Made by a program: the position numbers and the translations under genes. Positions 4,894 through 16,282 of a stretch of DNA of 64,000 nucleotides are shown in pieces; position 1 is the first letter of the stretch; each line of letters begins with the position of its first letter. Under the pieces are notes generated by a model that did no database searches, was not told where the DNA came from, and worked only from the letters and a program-made list of their open reading frames with translations. Source of the stretch: Candidatus Saccharimonadales bacterium (lineage in GTDB: Bacteria > Patescibacteriota > Saccharimonadia > Saccharimonadales > JAYRRP01); NCBI GenBank assembly GCA_041906765.1, contig JAYRIP010000008.1, forward strand, positions 2,898-66,897. The letters run 5' to 3'.

Positions 4894-7842
4894 TTAGTCC
4901 TTATCGATAAATATAGTGTGCTCTTTTTTTGCCGAGGGATGATTTGGCTTTAGGTGAAACTCGTTTTCAGGAACAACAGCAACAGCGTCTTGGTCTTCAT
5001 GCTTTGGCGGTGAGGCTTGTGTCGGATTCGATGCAGTCTCATCTCGCGGATGGTCAGCAGCAGGGGCTGGCGATGAGTAATGGTGTATGGGCGCTGCACT
5101 ACTCTGGGCTTCCTGAGTGGAAGGTGGATTTGATAACTCAGTTCGCTGCCCAGGGGCATCCGTTGCATAATCGGCAGAAGGATCCATCTTGGGGGTAGTG
5201 TGCGCCTTTGGCGGAGGCGGAACCTGGCTTGAAGAGGAAGGCACACCCTGGCGTTTTTTGGCAAGCCATTCATCAAGGAAAGAAGAACCTGTTGAGGGCG
5301 CCTTAGCTGGAAGCGGTTGTCCCGAAGCAGCGGGCATAGGCCCTCCGAACTGCTGAGGTCTAGGCTGGCTGCTTCCGGCAGGAGCCGCAGGAGTGTAAAG
5401 CCTCGTAGTTACTTCCTTTTCAACTACTGCTCTAGGACGTCCATACTTGGCCGCAGAGAGCTGTTTGAGTGCTTTAGCGAGATCCGGGTTTTCTGATCCC
5501 ATAGGTGGCACTGTGGCCATGCTGAACGGCTGTGTAGGCACTCCCCCGATTAATATCTGTGTAATAGTATTGTAGTTGGGTAATCTCAAAATGTCTTCGC
5601 GATCAAATACCGGCTGGAACTTCCTACTAAGCGCATCGGCGTCAGCATCCGCTCCAACCCTAAAAGCTGTTATGGAACCGACATTACCAAAAACAGCGTC
5701 TCTTATTTCATCAGTAAGCTGAGTGGTGAACTGGTTTGCCACAATCAAGTTCAGTCTATATTTTCGTGCTTCGGAAAGAATGGTTGCAAATGAATCAGTT
5801 GAAAAGTTTTGAAACTCATCAACGTATAAGCAAAAATCATTCCGTCGGTCTTCAGGCATGTCTGCCCGGCTCATAGCTGCCGCTTGAAACTTCATGACGA
5901 AAATCATACCCAACAACTTGGAATTCAACTCGCCTGTTCTACCCTTACTTAAGTTCACAAACAGAAGCTTATTATTATCCATAACGTCTCGCAGGTTAAA
6001 CGCACTCTTGGATTGACCAATAATGTTGCGCATCATGGAGTTACTCAAAAATGCGCCAAATTTACTGACAAACCAACTCTTCACCTCACCAAATTCGTTT
6101 GACCGTTCTGAGCCAGGCATCTCTTTCGTCCAAAAGTCTATCACTGTCCGATCTGTGACATACTTCAACTTTTGCCGCACATAAGAGGGGTCCGAGAACA
6201 ACTTAGGGATATCAACAAAGGTGCCCCCAGCTGGGTCGGACATGACAGTAAGTGCCGCGTTGCGGAAAAGATGGTGGTAGCGTGGACCAACGATTCCCTG
6301 ATGGTTGGGATCATAGAGCTTCTCGAGCATATTAATGGCTTCCTGAATAATGAAATCTTTTTGGTCTTCATTGTGATATTCAAAGAGATTAAGCCCAAGG
6401 GGGAAATCCGTTTCTCCCGGTGAAAAATAAATCACATCTTCGGTTCTCTCTTTTGGAACCATACTCATTAGCCTCTCTGCGCTCTCCCCATGAGGATCCA
6501 CAAAAGCAAAGCCACGACCTTCAATCATATCCTGCAATGCTAAGTTCTCTAGATATACCGATTTACCCACGCCAGTTTGTCCGACCACATACATGTGACG
6601 CCGTCGGTCTTCCAAGCTTAAGCGGACAGGTTTTTTCGTGCCACGAAAAATGTTGTAACCAAGCAATAAACCTTCGTCAGGCATATTGCGAGGCCCATCA
6701 ACTTGCTTAGAGCCTTGCCTTTCAACTTGTGAAGTAGGGATATTCCGCTGGTCAGGAAAATGGAATAACGTTGCTAATTCAACAGCATTTAAAATACTTT
6801 TGTTACTTTCCTGCGGGAAAAACCGCAGAATAAATGCAGTTACGAAACTCTCTATATCCTTAGATTCGGTATACTTGAAGCCATTCTTGCCCGGCGCATC
6901 AAACAGAGAGAACGCTGCCACAATATTGCTGAGTATTGCTTGAGAGCGTTGTGCAATATTCGACGATGCCACTATCCGGATCAGCACTTCATAGGCCGGA
7001 TAACGAGTCTTATCATCAATGGCATCCACGATTGCCTGGTCCAGGCTTGAAAGTTCCGGTTTTGGCGGCGATGATTCCCCGCCTGACTTTGGTTCCGGAG
7101 GCTTGACTACCGCCAGGCCGAGCTGGCGCGCCCAACCCCAGGATCCACCTTCACCCCCTCCCTTGCCAGAGCCTTTACGCTTTTGGTTAGCTATCGCTTG
7201 AGCACTCTTTCTCCAATCTGGGCTAGCCGGGCGCAGCATAATTTGAATGCCTGCCCCATCTTCTTTATCCAATGCCGACAATGCACTCAATATAGCTTGA
7301 ATCGCGTCACGCTTAATCTCTTGATAAGTTGCAATCGGGTACGCATAGTGCTCTTTTAAGGTGAGTTCGCCTCCTAATGTGCCGCTAATGCGGCCCACTG
7401 GGCTAAAGATATTATGCTCAGGTACTTCTTCGAGCTGGGCCGCCGGATATGCGCTGACAACAGCTTGTTTGACAACGTCCACCATCGCAACCGGAACTGC
7501 CGCGTAAAAGTGTACAAAACCCTTCTCGCCAATAATTTCAAAGGCAAAGTGGCGCTGCCCATAAAACTTACTTTTAAAACCCTTCTTTAATGTACTGGCA
7601 ATAATGCTGTAGAGCACCTGTGCTTTGGATATATTCTCATCTATTACATCACGCACATCACGACCACTCTCTTCGGTATCCTCGCTGATTGGCGGCAAAT
7701 GGATCAACAATGGAATCATTTTGAGGCCTCTCTCAAAATTTTTCTGCTCGCGCAACAGCTTCCTTGATTGGAAGTAAAAGACAATACCAGTTGCTGCCAC
7801 CAGCACAAGAAGGATAACGATAACTGTCAGAAAAAAAGGCAT
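4894..7842 (-). CDS. VirD4/TraG/TraD-like type IV coupling-protein-family ATPase with N-terminal TM anchor and disordered Pro/Ser-rich C-terminus
   Basis: 982 aa. It has an N-terminal TM (FFLTVIVILLVLVAATGIVFYF), Walker A VGQTGVGKS, Walker B-like FCLYVDEFQNF, and ARKYRLNLIVANQ typical of T4CP/TraM-recognition-domain ATPases. The last ~200 aa are low complexity. Confidence 0.7.
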   Translation of the reverse strand: MPFFLTVIVILLVLVAATGIVFYFQSRKLLREQKNFERGLKMIPLLIHLPPISEDTEESGRDVRDVIDENISKAQVLYSIIASTLKKGFKSKFYGQRHFAFEIIGEKGFVHFYAAVPVAMVDVVKQAVVSAYPAAQLEEVPEHNIFSPVGRISGTLGGELTLKEHYAYPIATYQEIKRDAIQAILSALSALDKEDGAGIQIMLRPASPDWRKSAQAIANQKRKGSGKGGGEGGSWGWARQLGLAVVKPPEPKSGGESSPPKPELSSLDQAIVDAIDDKTRYPAYEVLIRIVASSNIAQRSQAILSNIVAAFSLFDAPGKNGFKYTESKDIESFVTAFILRFFPQESNKSILNAVELATLFHFPDQRNIPTSQVERQGSKQVDGPRNMPDEGLLLGYNIFRGTKKPVRLSLEDRRRHMYVVGQTGVGKSVYLENLALQDMIEGRGFAFVDPHGESAERLMSMVPKERTEDVIYFSPGETDFPLGLNLFEYHNEDQKDFIIQEAINMLEKLYDPNHQGIVGPRYHHLFRNAALTVMSDPAGGTFVDIPKLFSDPSYVRQKLKYVTDRTVIDFWTKEMPGSERSNEFGEVKSWFVSKFGAFLSNSMMRNIIGQSKSAFNLRDVMDNNKLLFVNLSKGRTGELNSKLLGMIFVMKFQAAAMSRADMPEDRRNDFCLYVDEFQNFSTDSFATILSEARKYRLNLIVANQFTTQLTDEIRDAVFGNVGSITAFRVGADADADALSRKFQPVFDREDILRLPNYNTITQILIGGVPTQPFSMATVPPMGSENPDLAKALKQLSAAKYGRPRAVVEKEVTTRLYTPAAPAGSSQPRPQQFGGPMPAASGQPLPAKAPSTGSSFLDEWLAKKRQGVPSSSSQVPPPPKAHTTPKMDPSADYATDAPGQRTELSNPPSTQEAQSSAAPIHHYSSPAPAADHPRDETASNPTQASPPKHEDQDAVAVVPENEFHLKPNHPSAKKEHTIFIDKD

Positions 7843-12449: not shown

Positions 12450-12480
12450 AAACCGCCCGGATATGGGCGGTTTATTTATG
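12450..12480. terminator. bidirectional intrinsic terminator between rplT and rnpB
   Basis: AAACCGCCC-GGATAT-GGGCGGTTT with T-rich tracts on both strands (ATTTAT on plus; ATTATTTAAT on minus). Confidence 0.7.
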
Positions 12481-13053
12481 CCAGATAATCTGTAAGCCGG
12501 GTTCTGTCTGCTTCGGCATAAGTACCAAAGCGCGCTGACCATCTATCTAGCCCAGGCGTTGCCGCCTGGATCAAGCGGATAATCGACCGGCTCTGGCGGG
12601 AAACCGCAACCATAAAGATCACTTGCGAACCGATCTCCTTGCAGCAGGCAGGGTTTACCTCTCCCAACGGTCACCCGCTAGGACTGTGGGCTCTTACCCC
12701 ACTCTTTTCACCCTTACCCAGCACCTTTCAGAGCTGAATGCTTGCCTAAATTGCACGGAAGAAGCGAAGGGCACAATAAGCCGTATATGTAATACGGTGA
12801 AGAGCACTGGAGCTTCTGACAAAGCAATTTGCCAAGAGCGCGAGCAGAGTTTGAGCTTTGCTCAAAGCAAGCTCGCTCGGCATTTAGAACTGAAAGGTAC
12901 TGGGCGGTTTTGTTTCTGTGGCACTTTCCCTAGAGTTTCCTCCGGTTGCCGTTAACAACTGCCTTTCCCTACGCTGCCCGGACTTTCCTCCCCGCACCTC
13001 AAGAAGCTCTAGCACAGCCCCTTAAGGTGCGGGGCGATCAGCCAATAATCTGG
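12481..13053 (-). ncRNA. rnpB: RNase P RNA, bacterial type A, unusually long (~570 nt; ends approximate)
   Basis: Minus sense contains GAGGAAAGUCCGGGC (plus 12976-12990), GGUAAGAGC, and CUAGAUAGAUGGUCAGCGC...ACAGAACCCGGCUUAC (plus 12492-12507). P1-like pairing CCAGAU../..AUCUGG occurs at the two ends. The overlapping ORF-track entries look spurious. Confidence 0.9.
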
Positions 13054-13061
13054 CCCTACTA

Positions 13062-13913
13062 TTATACCTCTTCTTCTTGGGCTGCGGTATCCAAGATATT
13101 ATTCACGACCCCATCGGCTAATTTGTTGAGCTCACGTGGCACATGGGTAAATGTTGCCTTCTTAAAATGAGGCAATAGCTTACGAACACCGTCATGTATA
13201 GGCAATAAATCTCTATTTTTTACCTTGTAGATCGATTTCATTTGATTAACGACCAGCAAACTGTCCATATAGATGTGCACGACTTGTACGCCTCGTTTGA
13301 GAGCTTCTTCAAGGCCTATTTTAAGTGCTTGGTACTCAGCTTGATTGTTTGTGGTCACACCCAAGTAAAGGCCGTTTTCGACTATGACCGTATCATTCAT
13401 GTCCATCAAAACATAACCGCTGGCTGACGGGCCAGGATTGCCCCGCGAACCGCCATCCGCATACAATTTTACCTCTGTAATTACTGTTGATTTTTTTACA
13501 TCTCCTTTTGCCAACGGCCGGGGTTGCTGAGGATTAAACGTAAAGGTAAGAAACTTGATCGGTGTACGCTCATCTACACTTGGACCATAAAAGTTCTGAC
13601 TGGCTTTTAGAATGTTTTCCTTGGTCGAATACTCTTTGTATACAGCTAAGTCTTGTGCGGTAATGCCACCAATCCGTTTCTCAAGTATTTCGGTGATGTG
13701 GGCTTCCCCGATAACCTTCCAGCTATCTGGTTCCAGCGGACTTACTTTATCAATTATCAAGACAGCATCATTTACATGGAGGTCTTTATCGTCATTGACC
13801 CGCCAAGTGGCTATCTTCTCGCCTTTCACAATTTGTTGTGCAGTTTGATGGTCGACTTTGAGTGTTTTCATATATAGAAGCGTACCACAAAACGGCACCT
13901 TAACTTTTCGCAT
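13062..13913 (-). CDS. rnhA: ASCH-like domain fused to RNase HI (type 1 ribonuclease H)
   Basis: The C-terminal half (VKLYADGGSRGNPGPSASGYVL...TNNQAEYQALKIGLEEAL...MDSLLVVNQM...NKLADGVVN) carries the RNase H DEDD-type motifs. The N-terminal ~130 aa look ASCH/PUA-like. The true start may be the internal Met (MKTLKVD). Confidence 0.75.
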   Translation of the reverse strand: MRKVKVPFCGTLLYMKTLKVDHQTAQQIVKGEKIATWRVNDDKDLHVNDAVLIIDKVSPLEPDSWKVIGEAHITEILEKRIGGITAQDLAVYKEYSTKENILKASQNFYGPSVDERTPIKFLTFTFNPQQPRPLAKGDVKKSTVITEVKLYADGGSRGNPGPSASGYVLMDMNDTVIVENGLYLGVTTNNQAEYQALKIGLEEALKRGVQVVHIYMDSLLVVNQMKSIYKVKNRDLLPIHDGVRKLLPHFKKATFTHVPRELNKLADGVVNNILDTAAQEEEV

Positions 13914-15960: not shown

Positions 15961-16005
15961 TCAAAAATCCTCCATAGCTCCGCAAGAAGCGAAGCGACGG
16001 AGGAT
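15961..16005 (-). terminator. intrinsic terminator ending the tRNA-Pro/E1 transcript
   Basis: Minus sense: AUCCUCC...GGAGGAU followed by UUUUUGA. Confidence 0.65.
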
Positions 16006-16151
16006 GGTCGGGGTGACAGGACCCGGTCACCTCTGGCGACCCCGCAATTTTCATACTTGCAACAAGTTACAAATCTGAAAAATTGCCTTGCGGGCTGCCA
16101 CTGGCAGTCCTCACCTGCGACATCACGACCCCAGCCGTAAACGGGGTACTT
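16005..16151 (-). ncRNA. structured RNA element E1 (unknown family) ending in a tRNA-Pro-like 3' end ...CACCCCGACCA
   Basis: It is homologous to 37010-37139. The joiners are identical (GGUGA, GCAAG, GAU, GUA, GGG, GUCCUG) and the four helices show compensatory changes. See findings. Confidence 0.6.
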
Positions 16152-16227
16152 TGGTCAGGGTGAGAGGACTTGAACCTCCGCTCTCTGGACCCCCAGCCCA
16201 GCGCTTTACCAACTAAGCTACACCCTG
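16152..16227 (-). tRNA. tRNA-Pro (anticodon GGG), CCA encoded
   Basis: Hand-folded cloverleaf: CAGGGUG UA GCUU..AAGC G CUGGG CUGGGGG UCCAG AGAGC GGAGG UUCAAGU CCUCU CACCCUG A CCA. Confidence 0.92.
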
Positions 16228-16246: not shown

Positions 16247-16282
16247 GGGGTAATGCGCGCTAGCCAACTGCGCCACACCCCG
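16247..16282 (-). pseudogene. 5' fragment of a second tRNA-Pro-like gene (acceptor 5' strand + intact D-arm, no anticodon/T arm)
   Basis: CGGGGUG UG GCGC AGUUGGCUA GCGC G CAUUACCCC. Its acceptor strand is exactly complementary to CACCCCG-A-CCA at 16005-16015. Confidence 0.6.

Follow-up and report, generated by a model that had tools for sequence, protein, structure and literature searches.

The sequence analysed here is a 64,000-nt window of contig JAYRIP010000008.1 (GCA_041906765.1) from Candidatus Saccharimonadales bacterium, forward strand positions 2,898 to 66,897. Two of its tRNA loci, both on the minus strand, carry a copy of the same structured element, which we call E1 (at tRNA-Pro) and E2 (at tRNA-Arg). 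The features of the two loci, in window coordinates and in the order in which the minus strand is read, are as follows (R1 is the covariance model introduced below).

E1 locus
16250..16282, minus: 5' fragment of a tRNA-Pro-like gene, CGGGGUG UG GCGC AGUUGGCUA GCGC G CAUUAC (by eye)
16152..16227, minus: intact tRNA-Pro(GGG) (ARAGORN; Rfam tRNA 66.4 bits)
16116..16143, minus: middle portion of a truncated tRNA-Pro-like copy, flanking E1 on its 5' side (by eye)
16025..16115, minus: E1 core (R1 101.4 bits, E 1.3e-19), made up of GGUGAG, P1 (8 bp, loop AGU), GCAAG, P2 (a long hairpin with G.A/A-U/U.G in its middle and a bulged U), GGG, P3 (6-7 bp including a conserved G.U) and a terminal C
16005..16024, minus: 3' flank of E1, with the T-loop rest GGGU, T-stem 3' strand CCUGU, acceptor 3' strand CACCCCG, discriminator A and CCA
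15963..16007, minus: hairpin AUCCUCC..GGAGGAU followed by UUUUU, starting inside the CCA of the E1 unit (by eye)

E2 locus
37140..37192, minus: exact 53-nt copy of tRNA-Arg(CCU) positions 1-53, abutting E2 (exact repeat; local alignment score 106)
37049..37141, minus: E2 core (R1 97.4 bits, E 8.5e-19), with E1-like architecture, P1 loop AGUU and P2 apical loop UAU
37030..37048, minus: tail of the E2 unit, CGAGUCC (sense tRNA-Arg 57-63), one U, then GGACUCGAACC
37022-37028, minus: UUAUAAU just upstream of the intact tRNA-Arg(CCU)
36933..37009, minus: intact tRNA-Arg(CCU) (ARAGORN; Rfam tRNA 49.5 bits)

The intact tRNA-Pro(GGG) lies 36 nt upstream of E1 on the same strand, an arrangement that we call type B. 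The 5' flank of E1 contains a degenerate anticodon arm (UUACGG CUGGGG UCGUG, one G fewer than the Pro-GGG loop) followed by the variable region, and ends in GCAGG, the 5' strand of the T-stem, whose final two G overlap the start of E1; in this flank GGCTGGGG locally matches tRNA-Pro positions 30-37. In the 3' flank GTCCTGTCACCCCGACCA aligns to tRNA-Pro positions 59-76 and the tRNA homology ends exactly at CCA, with 0 nt of identity past it. The 3' flank is also kept in a relative (L075:61-84; L-numbers denote loci holding copies or relatives). E1 is not a free-standing RNA gene: it is inserted into the T-loop of a tRNA copy that is truncated and stands next to the intact cognate tRNA. An earlier note on this DNA, whose minus-strand transcriptions of both loci read exactly so, correctly tied the element to tRNA units but drew it too wide: its interval for E1, 16151..16005, takes in 36 nt of tRNA-derived 5' flank and 20 nt of 3' flank (T-loop remainder through CCA). 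Likewise, the joiners that it listed as shared by the two copies have the sequences given, but GGUGA and GUCCUG overlap the T-stem strands of the tRNA fragment.

The 5' fragment at 16250..16282 has an acceptor strand complementary to CACCCCG at 16009-16015, and its CAUUAC is complementary to GUGAUG at 16121-16126. Read by eye, the fragment is the second piece of the split 'outer' tRNA in which E1 sits. No tRNA is called there even with the ARAGORN intron search, which finds no extra tRNA in the whole window either, and nested fragments analogous to E1's outer tRNA occur at L013, L068, L038, L057, L060, L061 and L047. The hairpin at 15963..16007 is probably the terminator of the tRNA-Pro/E1 transcription unit. 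A simple terminator scan missed it because its loop exceeds 8 nt; at other loci, tRNAs and type B units are likewise followed by terminators that embrace the CCA. Scans for promoter and terminator consensus sequences at the E1 and E2 loci were uninformative.

E2 represents the other arrangement, type A, where the intact gene, here tRNA-Arg(CCU), lies downstream of the element on the same strand, at a distance of about 40 nt (39-42). The 53-nt copy that abuts E2 covers the acceptor 5' strand, D-arm, anticodon arm, variable loop and four T-stem G, and its match to the intact tRNA sets in precisely at position 1, with 0 nt of contiguous identity upstream. In the tail, GGACUCGAACC is the reverse complement of the uninterrupted tRNA-Arg positions 53-63. 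The tail makes a snap-back closing hairpin around E2, and the MFE fold pairs GGUU with AACC and GGGU with ACUC.

A large family in Saccharibacteria

The covariance model R1, built on 45 homologues, has 91 model positions. Its search of the 64-kb window returned exactly E1 and E2, as the earlier note had it, with the runner-up at 15.6 bits, and a 21-position pattern (GCAAG joiner plus the middle of the long stem) matched the same two places against 0.00 expected in shuffles. E1 and E2 are 77% identical over the model columns. The description as a two-copy family does not hold outside the window: the further homologues that the note wished to see sought are many, as one genome scan and one metagenome scan retrieved at least 172 copies, almost all of them from Saccharibacteria. 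Both scans used sequence patterns, so this census is biased towards certain subtypes, and it says nothing about per-genome copy number. As far as sampled, the family is restricted to Saccharibacteria; in viral contigs one pattern scan gave a lone chance match, within a coding region and without a tRNA.

Rfam 15, whose families include self-cleaving ribozymes, riboswitches and introns, assigns neither copy to a family, in line with the note's failure to match them to tmRNA, SRP RNA, 6S RNA, a T-box, a hammerhead or a group I core. At gathering thresholds the whole window yields nothing but RNase P RNA and six tRNAs, a search to E = 10 around E1 and E2 gives nothing above 18 bits (E 0.2-4) against thresholds of 35-80, and nine related loci give tRNAs only. 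Full-text searches of open-access papers found no account of such an element. E1 and E2 are members of a large, apparently undescribed family of ~92-nt three-hairpin elements.

Fold and covariation

The conserved core consists, in order, of 5'-GUGAG, P1 (with a GCC-AGU-GGC top), GCAAG, a long and variable P2, GG(G), and P3 with an almost invariant G.U. Single-sequence folds of the two loci beat shuffles by far, with -52.3 kcal/mol (z -4.3) and -57.3 kcal/mol (z -5.1). For the covariation analysis we used the four helices as drawn in the earlier note (P1, lower P2, upper P2 and P3; 32 pairs) and two alignments ascertained with different patterns. In the 45 genome copies 97.6% of cells are paired, 23 of the 32 pairs have changed on both sides and the covariation score is 0.54 compared to 0.17 in shuffles; partner-slid controls on this alignment reach only 27-43% pairing. 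The 86 metagenome copies, selected independently, are 94.3% paired, show both-side changes in 31 of the 32 pairs and score 0.62 compared to 0.18 in shuffles. RNAalifold, unaided, predicts the same helices. The drawn structure and the covariation proposed for it from two copies are therefore confirmed in independent sets. The core of the note is supported, namely an RNA-type fold under selection, neither coding sequence nor neutral scar, of no known family and linked to tRNA units.

The two alignments contain 119 and 153 G.U pairs but only 8 and 44 A.C pairs, which puts the fold on the tRNA-sense strand. The conserved G.U of P3 is found in 79 of the 83 copies with letters at that pair. The same counts disagree with a DNA palindrome valid on both strands, as expected for MITE or REP elements, and terminal inverted repeats are missing as well, since the ends GUGAG... 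and ...GUGAC(C/U) are not mutual inverts. The junction strands GU, AAG and GG are nearly invariant while the helices covary freely; with these fixed nucleotides at the junction, the element would be a promising candidate for a ribozyme or protein-recognition fold of a new kind.

Two tertiary motifs were considered and rejected. A pseudoknot between the GCAAG joiner and the CUUG apical loop fails because the complementarity is missing in long-loop variants (UAU). The GAU/GUA internal loop is not of the sarcin-ricin/loop-E kind, being a symmetric 3x3 loop that is replaced in other subtypes.

Elements interrupt truncated tRNA copies beside the intact gene

The host of each element is a truncated, non-functional tRNA copy with one of its loops interrupted, most often the T-loop at 54/55, and an intact tRNA of the same identity typically stands 30-90 nt away on the same strand. 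Among 152 full-length copies, 112 are within 350 nt of a same-strand intact tRNA, and 17 amino-acid specificities are covered. The junction is in the T-loop in 67 cases, at the D-stem end (position-26 junction) in about 15, in the D-loop in about 12 and in the anticodon loop in 2-3. Between 1 and 4 target bases are lost at the junctions, target-site duplication is absent at the element ends, and the base preceding the element varies (G, A, C, T), with a G-rich context being common. A type A unit runs tRNA(1-54), element, a few tRNA bases, antisense tRNA stretch, spacer and intact tRNA, and a type B unit runs intact tRNA, often terminator and antisense stretch, tRNA(about 44-54), element and tRNA(56-CCA). 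Element orientation is that of the tRNA in all examined copies except two antisense ones. Copies also nest in the GGG joiner of other copies (L052, L096, L101, L126, L152, L164, L165), one partial tRNA-Glu holds two copies, L003 has four copies within 1 kb, and another host is the loop of a non-tRNA hairpin.

The limits of the copied tRNA segments are sharp. In 18 of 22 type A units the match to the intact tRNA sets in no more than 2 nt from position 1, and in 9 of 10 type B units it stops no more than 2 nt past CCA; therefore, the copied segments are bounded by mature tRNA ends, as retro-copied processed RNA would be. As the genes of these tRNAs already encode CCA, finding it at the end of a copy is no proof of a processed template. 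Each antisense stretch can pair with the uninterrupted tRNA right across the point of insertion and so must have been templated on an element-free tRNA; sense/antisense closure around the element is found in about two thirds of units. Gene conversion was judged an unlikely cause of the sharp boundaries, because it should homogenise the adjacent flanks as well.

Could the element be an intron of the tRNA gene, self-splicing or enzyme-dependent, spliced out or tolerated at non-canonical positions as in Archaea? The D-, anticodon and T-loop sites are those of archaeal non-canonical tRNA introns, the conserved 5' GUGAG would suit such a role and tRNA introns are abundant in Patescibacteria (PMC13011429). 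However, when the element is deleted in silico (ARAGORN, 99 boundary combinations per copy), a tRNA is restored in only 3 of 152 copies, and two of these are snap-back artefacts. The one convincing case, L046, is a complete tRNA-Val(GAC) with the element in its T-loop and no other tRNA within 1.5 kb. All other hosts are truncated, most with the intact gene nearby as counted above, and at ~92 nt, with no Rfam group I or II match, the known catalytic cores are missing: Intron_gpI is not matched at any threshold, and 91 positions in three hairpins compare with the ~200+ nt and P3-P9 core, including a G-binding site in P7, that a group I intron requires. Where the flanks pair, the partner is an uninterrupted antisense tRNA copy, therefore the insert bulges from one strand only, which is unlike a bulge-helix-bulge, where each strand has a 3-nt bulge and a 4-bp helix lies between the two at the exon-intron junctions. 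An intron is thus largely refuted, and we find this reading scarcely credible.

The resemblance to the archaeal systems is still instructive: both have extra sequence in D-, anticodon or T-loops, and both have tRNA genes in pieces with complementary flanks that join the pieces. Archaeal non-canonical introns and split tRNA genes, the subject of papers such as PMC3241643 and PMC3239211, depend on a bulge-helix-bulge. Here, that motif is absent, removal of the insert seldom gives a tRNA, the hosts are truncated and redundant, and the insert itself has a conserved three-hairpin fold. The splicing endonuclease is not known from bacteria. The known tRNA introns of Patescibacteria are at least about 200 nt long, have a group I core, occupy the anticodon loop of the sole functional gene copy and are capable of self-splicing in vitro (PMC13011429). 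They have in common with our element the phylum, a structured RNA that interrupts tRNA genes and the escape from standard annotation, but differ from it in size, in the group I match and in place, as ours sits mostly in T- or D-loops of dead copies; an element of ~92 nt is not mentioned in that paper.

The type B layout, an intact tRNA followed by a direct repeat of its T-loop-to-CCA part, is also the textbook layout of an integrase scar. The tRNA fragments would then be attL/attR from a T-loop crossover and the structured element a conserved arm. Tyrosine-recombinase genes do occur near the tRNA-Arg locus of relatives, and tRNA-Arg(CCU) itself differs in place and sequence in the closest relative. 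The repeat-bounded segment, however, is only about 150-250 nt long and contains neither an ORF nor an integrase gene, and in type A units, equally common, it is the 5' part of the tRNA, starting at position 1, that is duplicated. The element is located within the loop and flanked by both T-stem strands, not beside a crossover core, an outcome that a crossover would not yield. One family would moreover need matching tRNA fragments for 17 amino acids, and covariation rich in G.U is unexpected for protein-binding att arms. We consider integrase scars a very improbable explanation.

Presence and retention in relatives

The presence of the element is lineage-specific. In L073 and L074 a tRNA-Arg(CCU) with a homologous 3' flank lies at the orthologous NDK-bPH site without an element, and L070, the closest relative, lacks both tRNA and element at the site of E2 in the window, while its tRNA-Arg(CCU), in a different place and of different sequence, also lacks one. 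For E1, synteny was followed via the PurM-like gene: the upstream regions are unconserved in L076-L079, and only L075 is useful, its contig breaking inside the element. The E1 unit is retained in a relative with 92% PurM identity. Between the orthologous units L013 and L068 (same tRNA-Gln, homologous spacer) compensatory changes are seen in all three helices, and compensatory evolution is likewise found at the orthologous loci L033/L055. These changes, together with the retention of the E1 unit, show that the element is kept for long and that its structure is under selection at individual loci.

An RNA of use to the host would predict such retention. The main alternative to the reading that we favour below is indeed that the element is a structured RNA module useful to the host (a ribozyme, an aptamer or a domain bound by protein) and acting in cis in tRNA transcription units, with the tRNA fragments as working parts and not debris. 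Possible variants include a gate, in which the fold decides whether the antisense stretch is sequestered by the decoy sense fragment or pairs with the T-arm of the neighbouring pre-tRNA, controlling its maturation, and a processed small RNA freed by RNase P or RNase III. Near-invariant junction strands amid covarying helices are the pattern of riboswitch aptamers and small ribozymes, and a useful RNA would account for the compensatory evolution at orthologous loci as well as for persistence in streamlined genomes although the flanking direct repeats should favour loss. Certain combinations of tRNA and insertion site are found in many genomes (22 copies for Gln type A, 11 each for Glu type A and Lys type B, 9 for Gly type A). 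Type A units are in the leader of the intact tRNA, and every transcript of that tRNA has to run through them; sense/antisense closure, too, is frequent. Against this, the element is dispensable at a given tRNA, as the element-free tRNA-Arg(CCU) of L070, L073 and L074 show, and its hosts, sites and types are heterogeneous, with a non-tRNA hairpin, nested copies and two antisense copies among them. Parts of the tRNA fragments have degenerated, as seen for the D-arm (L024, L039) and the anticodon loop (L012), many type B units lie behind a terminator, and similarity between elements is nearly independent of host tRNA and locus. Regulation would also leave the exact copy limits, at tRNA position 1 and CCA, unexplained. 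We therefore regard a host function as a serious possibility, but an unlikely one on balance. If it is true, the element would be a widespread cis-acting partner of tRNA genes that has no known equivalent.

Possible mode of spread

Among the 885 ORFs lying within 3 kb of copies at 161 loci, no protein family stands out as enriched, so the element itself is taken to be non-autonomous. The recurring neighbour-ORF clusters that could be recognised are housekeeping ones (peptidyl-tRNA hydrolase, DprA, TopA, TrmD). A reverse transcriptase was found neither in the window (tblastn with a Saccharibacteria RT query) nor as a cluster among those 885 ORFs, so that the adjacent gene of a retron (msr-msd) or another RT-linked non-coding RNA is missing. 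The window search did return an RNase H homologue, at 13062-13871, as its only hit.

We give about an even chance to the following reading: the element is a selfish, non-autonomous, structure-dependent insertion element aimed at exposed RNA loops, which probably spreads via an RNA intermediate. The fold would be needed for the element's own propagation. Element RNA would be joined to a processed tRNA or another stable RNA at an exposed loop, and the resulting tRNA-element chimera would then be copied back into DNA beside the cognate gene. In this scheme mobility is the presumed cause of the distribution, and a reverse transcriptase or ligase would have to act in trans. Such an enzyme is purely inferred, given the RT searches above. 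Long retention in a deletion-prone 1-Mb genome suits a host-useful RNA, and pure selfishness explains it less easily. Finally, no model covers together the antisense arm, the loss of 1-4 bases and the placement beside the cognate gene.

Template-switching reverse transcription is known to give tRNA chimeras, as in variants of the Mauriceville and Varkud retroplasmids of Neurospora mitochondria, and tRNA-derived SINEs are of a similar nature. There, as here, genomic copies fuse mature-ended tRNA sequence to an unrelated structured RNA, therefore implying reverse transcription of processed tRNA. The present loci differ in that there is no linked reverse transcriptase, the junctions are internal at loops and not at tRNA ends, A-tails and target duplications are absent and the copies lie beside the cognate gene. 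Small structured mobile repeats are also well known, for example the double-hairpin elements and GC clusters of fungal mitochondria, the hairpin repeats of sponge mitochondria (PMC2800124) and the Rickettsia palindromic elements. Like our family they are short, non-coding, multi-copy and non-autonomous, show compensatory changes and lie in or beside structural RNA genes, with mobility inferred from distribution, as here. However, they are simple palindromes without a fixed host structure, unlike the three-helix junction with invariant joiners and strand-specific G.U fold that we describe, which has tRNA loops as targets, mature-end tRNA fragments, antisense closures and an intact cognate tRNA.

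Movement at the DNA level has to be weighed too. An element moving as single-stranded DNA, comparable to IS200/IS605 miniatures or to recombination sites recognised as hairpins, might enter the hairpin loops of tRNA genes via a transposase encoded elsewhere. It would have a strand-specific fold and subterminal hairpins, as P1 and P3 are, a few bases from each end; it could insert at loops, which are present in single-stranded tDNA as well, and leave no target-site duplication at its ends; and the nesting of copies and the lack of any coding capacity would be expected. But the duplicated tRNA segments end at mature RNA ends, which are invisible to a DNA mechanism, and the loss of 1-4 target bases is not clean insertion by a fixed target motif. 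The P3 G.U and the many other G.U pairs suit RNA better, even if G.T is tolerated in DNA hairpins. The near-uniform orientation with the tRNA also speaks against it, and no TnpA, TnpB or HUH-type gene was noticed in the 25 largest neighbour-ORF clusters, judged by first residues only. On this evidence a DNA-level element is improbable.

A bolder form of RNA-based spread, which we hold to be rather unlikely, is a new catalytic or ligase-dependent 'RNA transposon'. Its three-helix junction and antisense guide would insert the RNA into loops of mature tRNAs or other stable RNAs, and the chimeras would be fixed in DNA beside the cognate gene. The outcome would be nested 'tRNA within tRNA' loci, with the resident tRNA gene split and a replacement copy riding along.

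If spread as a selfish insertion element via RNA is indeed what happens, an abundant undescribed structured element remodels tRNA loci in some of the smallest and most streamlined bacterial genomes, which would explain the tRNA-fragment-filled tRNA neighbourhoods of Saccharibacteria and the assembly breaks there. It would be the bacterial parallel of the archaeal tRNA genes that are split or bear introns, and it raises the testable question of whether the exposed elbow and loops of tRNA are targets of selfish RNAs. The mature-end boundaries point to RNA-to-DNA traffic in a lineage reported to be without group II introns (PMC13011429). The covariance model can now be used to annotate such regions.

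Copies in the window and across genomes

Our reading of the minus strand agrees at both loci with the transcription in the earlier note:

16115 to 16025, minus strand: E1, element core
37141 to 37049, minus strand: E2, element core

The two are 77% identical over aligned model columns and fold with energies of -52.3 kcal/mol for E1 (z -4.3 against shuffled versions) and -57.3 kcal/mol for E2 (z -5.1). A pattern combining the GCAAG joiner with the middle of the stem matches the window at E1 and E2 only, with no match expected, and a covariance model built from homologues, run over the whole window, gives them 101.4 and 97.4 bits, the next match reaching 15.6 bits. That the element belongs to no known RNA family, as first suspected, is borne out by Rfam 15, which assigns neither E1 nor E2 even at E = 10; these negatives also exclude a group I intron, a group II intron and a known ribozyme.

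The window comes from a Saccharibacteria genome; the best matches of its proteins are Saccharibacteria/Saccharimonadales proteins, and it carries an RNase P RNA with large insertions. The latter, of bacterial type A (12477-13053, minus strand; 253.6 bits), carries unusually large insertions of ~21 nt in P3 and ~190 nt in the P12 region, among others, and its enlargement fits a candidate-phyla-radiation genome.

The presence of the element is lineage-specific. Scanning species-representative genomes with a pattern taken from the long stem returned 68 loci, ~48 of them true homologues, nearly all in Saccharibacteria/Saccharimonadia assemblies, while the other matches are due to chance, in coding DNA of other phyla. 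A metagenome scan with a different pattern, from the 5' module, returned at least 120 loci, ~100 of the matches listed being true. Across all fetched loci nhmmer finds 172 copies (152 full length), a census biased towards particular subtypes since both collection scans were pattern-based; the 'two-copy family' proposed earlier therefore holds inside the window, which has exactly two copies, but not beyond it. Copies may cluster: at locus L003 two tRNA-Pro genes have four copies around them in 1 kb, and at L026 three lie upstream of one tRNA-Glu. Several metagenomic contigs begin or end inside an element or a few bases from it (L075:1-64, L142, L165), as expected if a multi-copy repeat interrupts short-read assembly.

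Fold and conserved core

Pairing and covariation are strong in both the genome and the metagenome set, which upholds the original view of a structured RNA with compensatory changes.

Pairing and covariation in two sets of copies (metagenome copies are those fitted to the model)
Genome copies: n = 45; 97.6% of cells paired; 23 of 32 pairs changed on both sides; covariation 0.54 against 0.17 shuffled
Metagenome copies: n = 86; 94.3% of cells paired; 31 of 32 pairs changed on both sides; covariation 0.62 against 0.18 shuffled

The values of the genome set are not reached in any of 500 shuffles, and sliding the 3' partners lowers its pairing to 27-43%. RNAalifold independently finds the same helices, together with G4-C27 at the base of hairpin P1 and a seventh pair in hairpin P3, linking the final G of the joiner to the base that follows P3. 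The fold lies on the tRNA-sense strand, because G.U pairs outnumber A.C pairs in both alignments (119 against 8 and 153 against 44) and, at one P3 pair, 79 of the 83 copies that have letters there show G.U. Cross-validation, where each set tests the columns not fixed by the other set's search pattern, leaves a conserved core of GUGAG, the GCC-AGU-GGC top of P1, GCAAG, GG(G) and CGC/GUG in P3. The middle of the long stem P2 varies by subtype, being UUUCAGAUU/AGUAUGAAA in the window and UUCCGAUG/AAUCGUGAAG or UUCUCUUG/AAAGAUGAAG elsewhere; a subtype II, which is longer, has another central domain and an A/U-rich P3 extension.

Host sites and unit architecture

Both window copies are tRNA-linked, as the earlier note said; what it missed is that they lie inside tRNA T-loops. 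GUC GCAGG precedes E1 and GGGU CCUGU CACCCCG A CCA follows it; these flanks supply the T-stem (GCAGG/CCUGU), the remainder of the T-loop, the acceptor 3' strand and CCA. Upstream of it lie:

16282 to 16250, minus strand: acceptor 5' strand complementary to the E1 flank, D-arm and first anticodon-stem strand, upstream of the intact tRNA-Pro(GGG)
16227 to 16152, minus strand: intact tRNA-Pro(GGG) of the E1 locus

The order is thus tRNA-Pro-like positions 1-33, intact tRNA-Pro(GGG), and tRNA-Pro-like positions 27-76 with E1 in the T-loop. E2 directly follows an exact 53-nt copy of tRNA-Arg(CCU) positions 1-53, the gene itself lying ~40 nt downstream, and directly precedes CGAGUCC (positions 57-63) and then GGACUCGAACC, which is antisense to positions 53-63 without the interruption, so that a hairpin closes around E2.

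Across the family, an intact tRNA lies no more than 350 nt away on the same strand for 112 of the 152 full-length copies, and the adjoining tRNAs represent 17 amino-acid specificities. Two arrangements recur.

Unit types and junctions (numbers are tRNA positions)
Type A, 65 copies including E2, start: tRNA sense 1 to ~54 (or to 13-17, or to 24-25), then element
Type A, end: 7-11 further sense bases, antisense stretch back across the insertion point, 30-70 nt spacer, intact tRNA
Type B, 47 copies including E1, start: intact tRNA, often a terminator, antisense stretch (e.g. 63 to 45), short loop
Type B, end: sense 44-54, element, sense 56 to CCA, often a second terminator
Junction in T-loop: 67 copies
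Junction at D-stem end (24/25 to 28): ~15 copies
Junction in D-loop: ~12 copies
Junction in anticodon loop: 2-3 copies

The antisense stretches are complementary to the tRNA without interruption, also at bases absent from the sense side, and were therefore templated on an element-free tRNA; the whole unit is predicted to be able to form a long helix from one strand of which the element bulges. The second piece of a split tRNA is kept beyond the intact gene at many loci, among them L013, L068, L038, L057, L060, L061, L047 and the E1 locus, the overall picture being of a resident tRNA gene broken at a loop with an intact cognate tRNA between the pieces. The element also occupies a third kind of host, the loop of a conserved non-tRNA hairpin. 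This hairpin opens an unannotated, RNA-like stretch upstream of dprA, where again a 5' partial copy with the element precedes the intact hairpin. Elements also nest inside the GG(G) joiner of other elements at no fewer than seven loci (at least 7), and two copies are antisense relative to a tRNA-Phe fragment.

Around the inner intact tRNA-Gln of L068:1140-1290 and L013:6755-6920 the leader complements the trailer (e.g. GUUCAGCAUUCUUCUCU ... AGAGAAGCAUGCUGAAC), which places this tRNA at the tip of a long stem, to judge from sequence much like a processing stem. Terminators after tRNAs or type B units have stems starting within the CCA end at many loci (e.g. L058, L061, L064, L003; window 15963-16007), the A-rich stretch after CCA pairing with the U-run to give long hairpins around the tRNA 3' terminus.

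Origin and dynamics

The copied tRNA sequence respects mature ends: identity to the intact tRNA starts no more than 2 nt from position 1 in 18 of 22 type A units and stops no more than 2 nt past CCA in 9 of 10 type B units. Such boundaries would be expected of a processed tRNA template and not of DNA segmental duplication or gene conversion, with the caveat that CCA is genome-encoded here.

The relatives L073 and L074 carry tRNA-Arg(CCU) without the element in the interval from NDK to the bPH gene, and its 3' flank is homologous to that of the window. In L070, the closest sampled relative (84% identity in a SurA-like protein), 57 nt separate the Big_7 and bPH genes (5403-5459), and this gap contains no tRNA and no element; the window counterpart (36681-37228) holds a tRNA-Arg(CCU) starting GCCCCGGUAG. 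After NDK, L070 has a quite different tRNA-Arg(CCU), starting GUCCCCAUAG (1981-2165), where the window has none (40484-40625), and in more distant relatives the two intervening genes are missing. The comparison suggests that tRNA-Arg(CCU) was gained, lost or replaced around an inserted gene pair. Beyond the terminator of the window gene, ~80 nt (81-92 nt) downstream, a tRNA 3'-end-like remnant, GCUCCUCUACCA (36841-36852, minus strand), has its own CCA-embracing hairpin and looks like an older partial tRNA copy without an element; a diverged counterpart exists at L074:9380-9400, in a locus without the element.

The E1 unit is present in L075 (92% PurM identity) with the same P3 and CCUGUCACCCCGACCA flank and another P2 subtype, and between L013 and L068 the orthologous tRNA-Gln units show compensatory changes in every helix. 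That units are retained for long while changing in a compensatory way, and that the junction strands are invariant, speaks for the main rival reading, a cis-acting RNA module useful to the host, which we consider possible if rather unlikely. The similarity of elements hardly follows host or locus: in 25 of 112 cases an element and its nearest neighbour carry the same host label (7.5% by chance), identity is 0.68 within against 0.67 between loci, and the element nearest to E2 (identity 0.89) lies beside tRNA-Lys in another genome.

Mechanism and other readings

In the best-supported reading, to which we give an even chance, the family is a non-autonomous insertion element that needs its fold in order to propagate. 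It would target exposed loops of stable RNAs, probably passing through an RNA stage before being copied into DNA beside the cognate gene. The data show the family, its fold and strand, the loop sites, truncated hosts, nesting, mature-end boundaries, antisense closures and lineage-specific presence; from these we infer mobility, an RNA intermediate and an enzyme acting in trans. The 3 kb around copies show no enriched protein family, and no reverse transcriptase is encoded in the window. Candidate trans-acting partners are a 577-aa reverse transcriptase (RVT_1) and large serine recombinases on the Saccharibacteria contigs L078 (1212-2864 and 5332-7065) and L131 (343-2092); none of these genes adjoins an element.

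A single-stranded-DNA element appears improbable. The element ends lack terminal inverted repeats and target duplication; instead, 1-4 target bases are missing at the junctions. Scars of an integrase are highly improbable: what lies between the tRNA repeats is too short for an integrative element, and repeats of the 5' part occur too. Least credible is a true intron of working tRNA genes, as excising the element, tried with 99 combinations of boundaries, yields a tRNA for 3 of 152 copies, two of these being snap-back artefacts and only tRNA-Val(GAC) of L046 convincing. The element is not described in a 2026 survey of Patescibacteria tRNA introns (PMC13011429), and we found nothing similar in the open-access full-text literature. 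Among the known kinds considered, the only defining feature that our tests detected was the mature-end signature of retro-copied RNA, and we therefore rate the element, relative to open-access literature, as outside known kinds and its mechanism as a proposal.

Related inserts and other RNA-like loci

A type-B-like unit with a different insert (29581-29839) follows tRNA-Val(GAC) (29839..29763, minus strand). It has an antisense T-arm AGACUCGAACC (29711..29701), GAUAGG, an insert of ~92 nt (29694..29603) that begins with a P1-like hairpin, GUAAAUAGCC GGG GGCUAUUUAC, and is otherwise unlike the element, and a perfect repeat of the final 22 nt of the tRNA (29602..29581). R1, the covariance model built from 45 homologues, gives the insert only 10.2 bits, and the unit suggests a wider class of inserts sharing one architecture.

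The conserved RNA-like region upstream of dprA/topA in Saccharibacteria (~330 nt; L032:5640-6045, minus strand, L053:6250-6570, L043, L027, L022) is unannotated, matches no Rfam family and does not occur in the window. The hairpin at its start covaries and bears the loop AGGGGGUGGGCACCG, a target of the element; the region also contains ACACCCUUCAACCCACC and a long hairpin, GUUUUAGAGC...GUGGAGGGUAACAAC...GCUCUAAAAC.

Nested (tRNA-within-tRNA) or split tRNA copies also occur without a recognisable element. L073:11204-11573 has tRNA-Asp 1-41, a 72-nt insert and 42-59, with an intact gene downstream, and L012:3371-3613 has tRNA-Ile 1-35, 53 nt, intact tRNA-Ile, 37 nt and then 37-77, with no insert. 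In L070:7683-7942 the tRNA-Asp 3' copy lies 164 nt downstream, after an antisense T-arm and an unrelated insert of ~85 nt. Downstream of tRNA-Asp(GUC) and its terminator in the window, GGAACCGGAUUGG (34420-34470, minus strand) resembles the antisense of its T-arm and may be a decayed remnant of a type B unit like that of L070.
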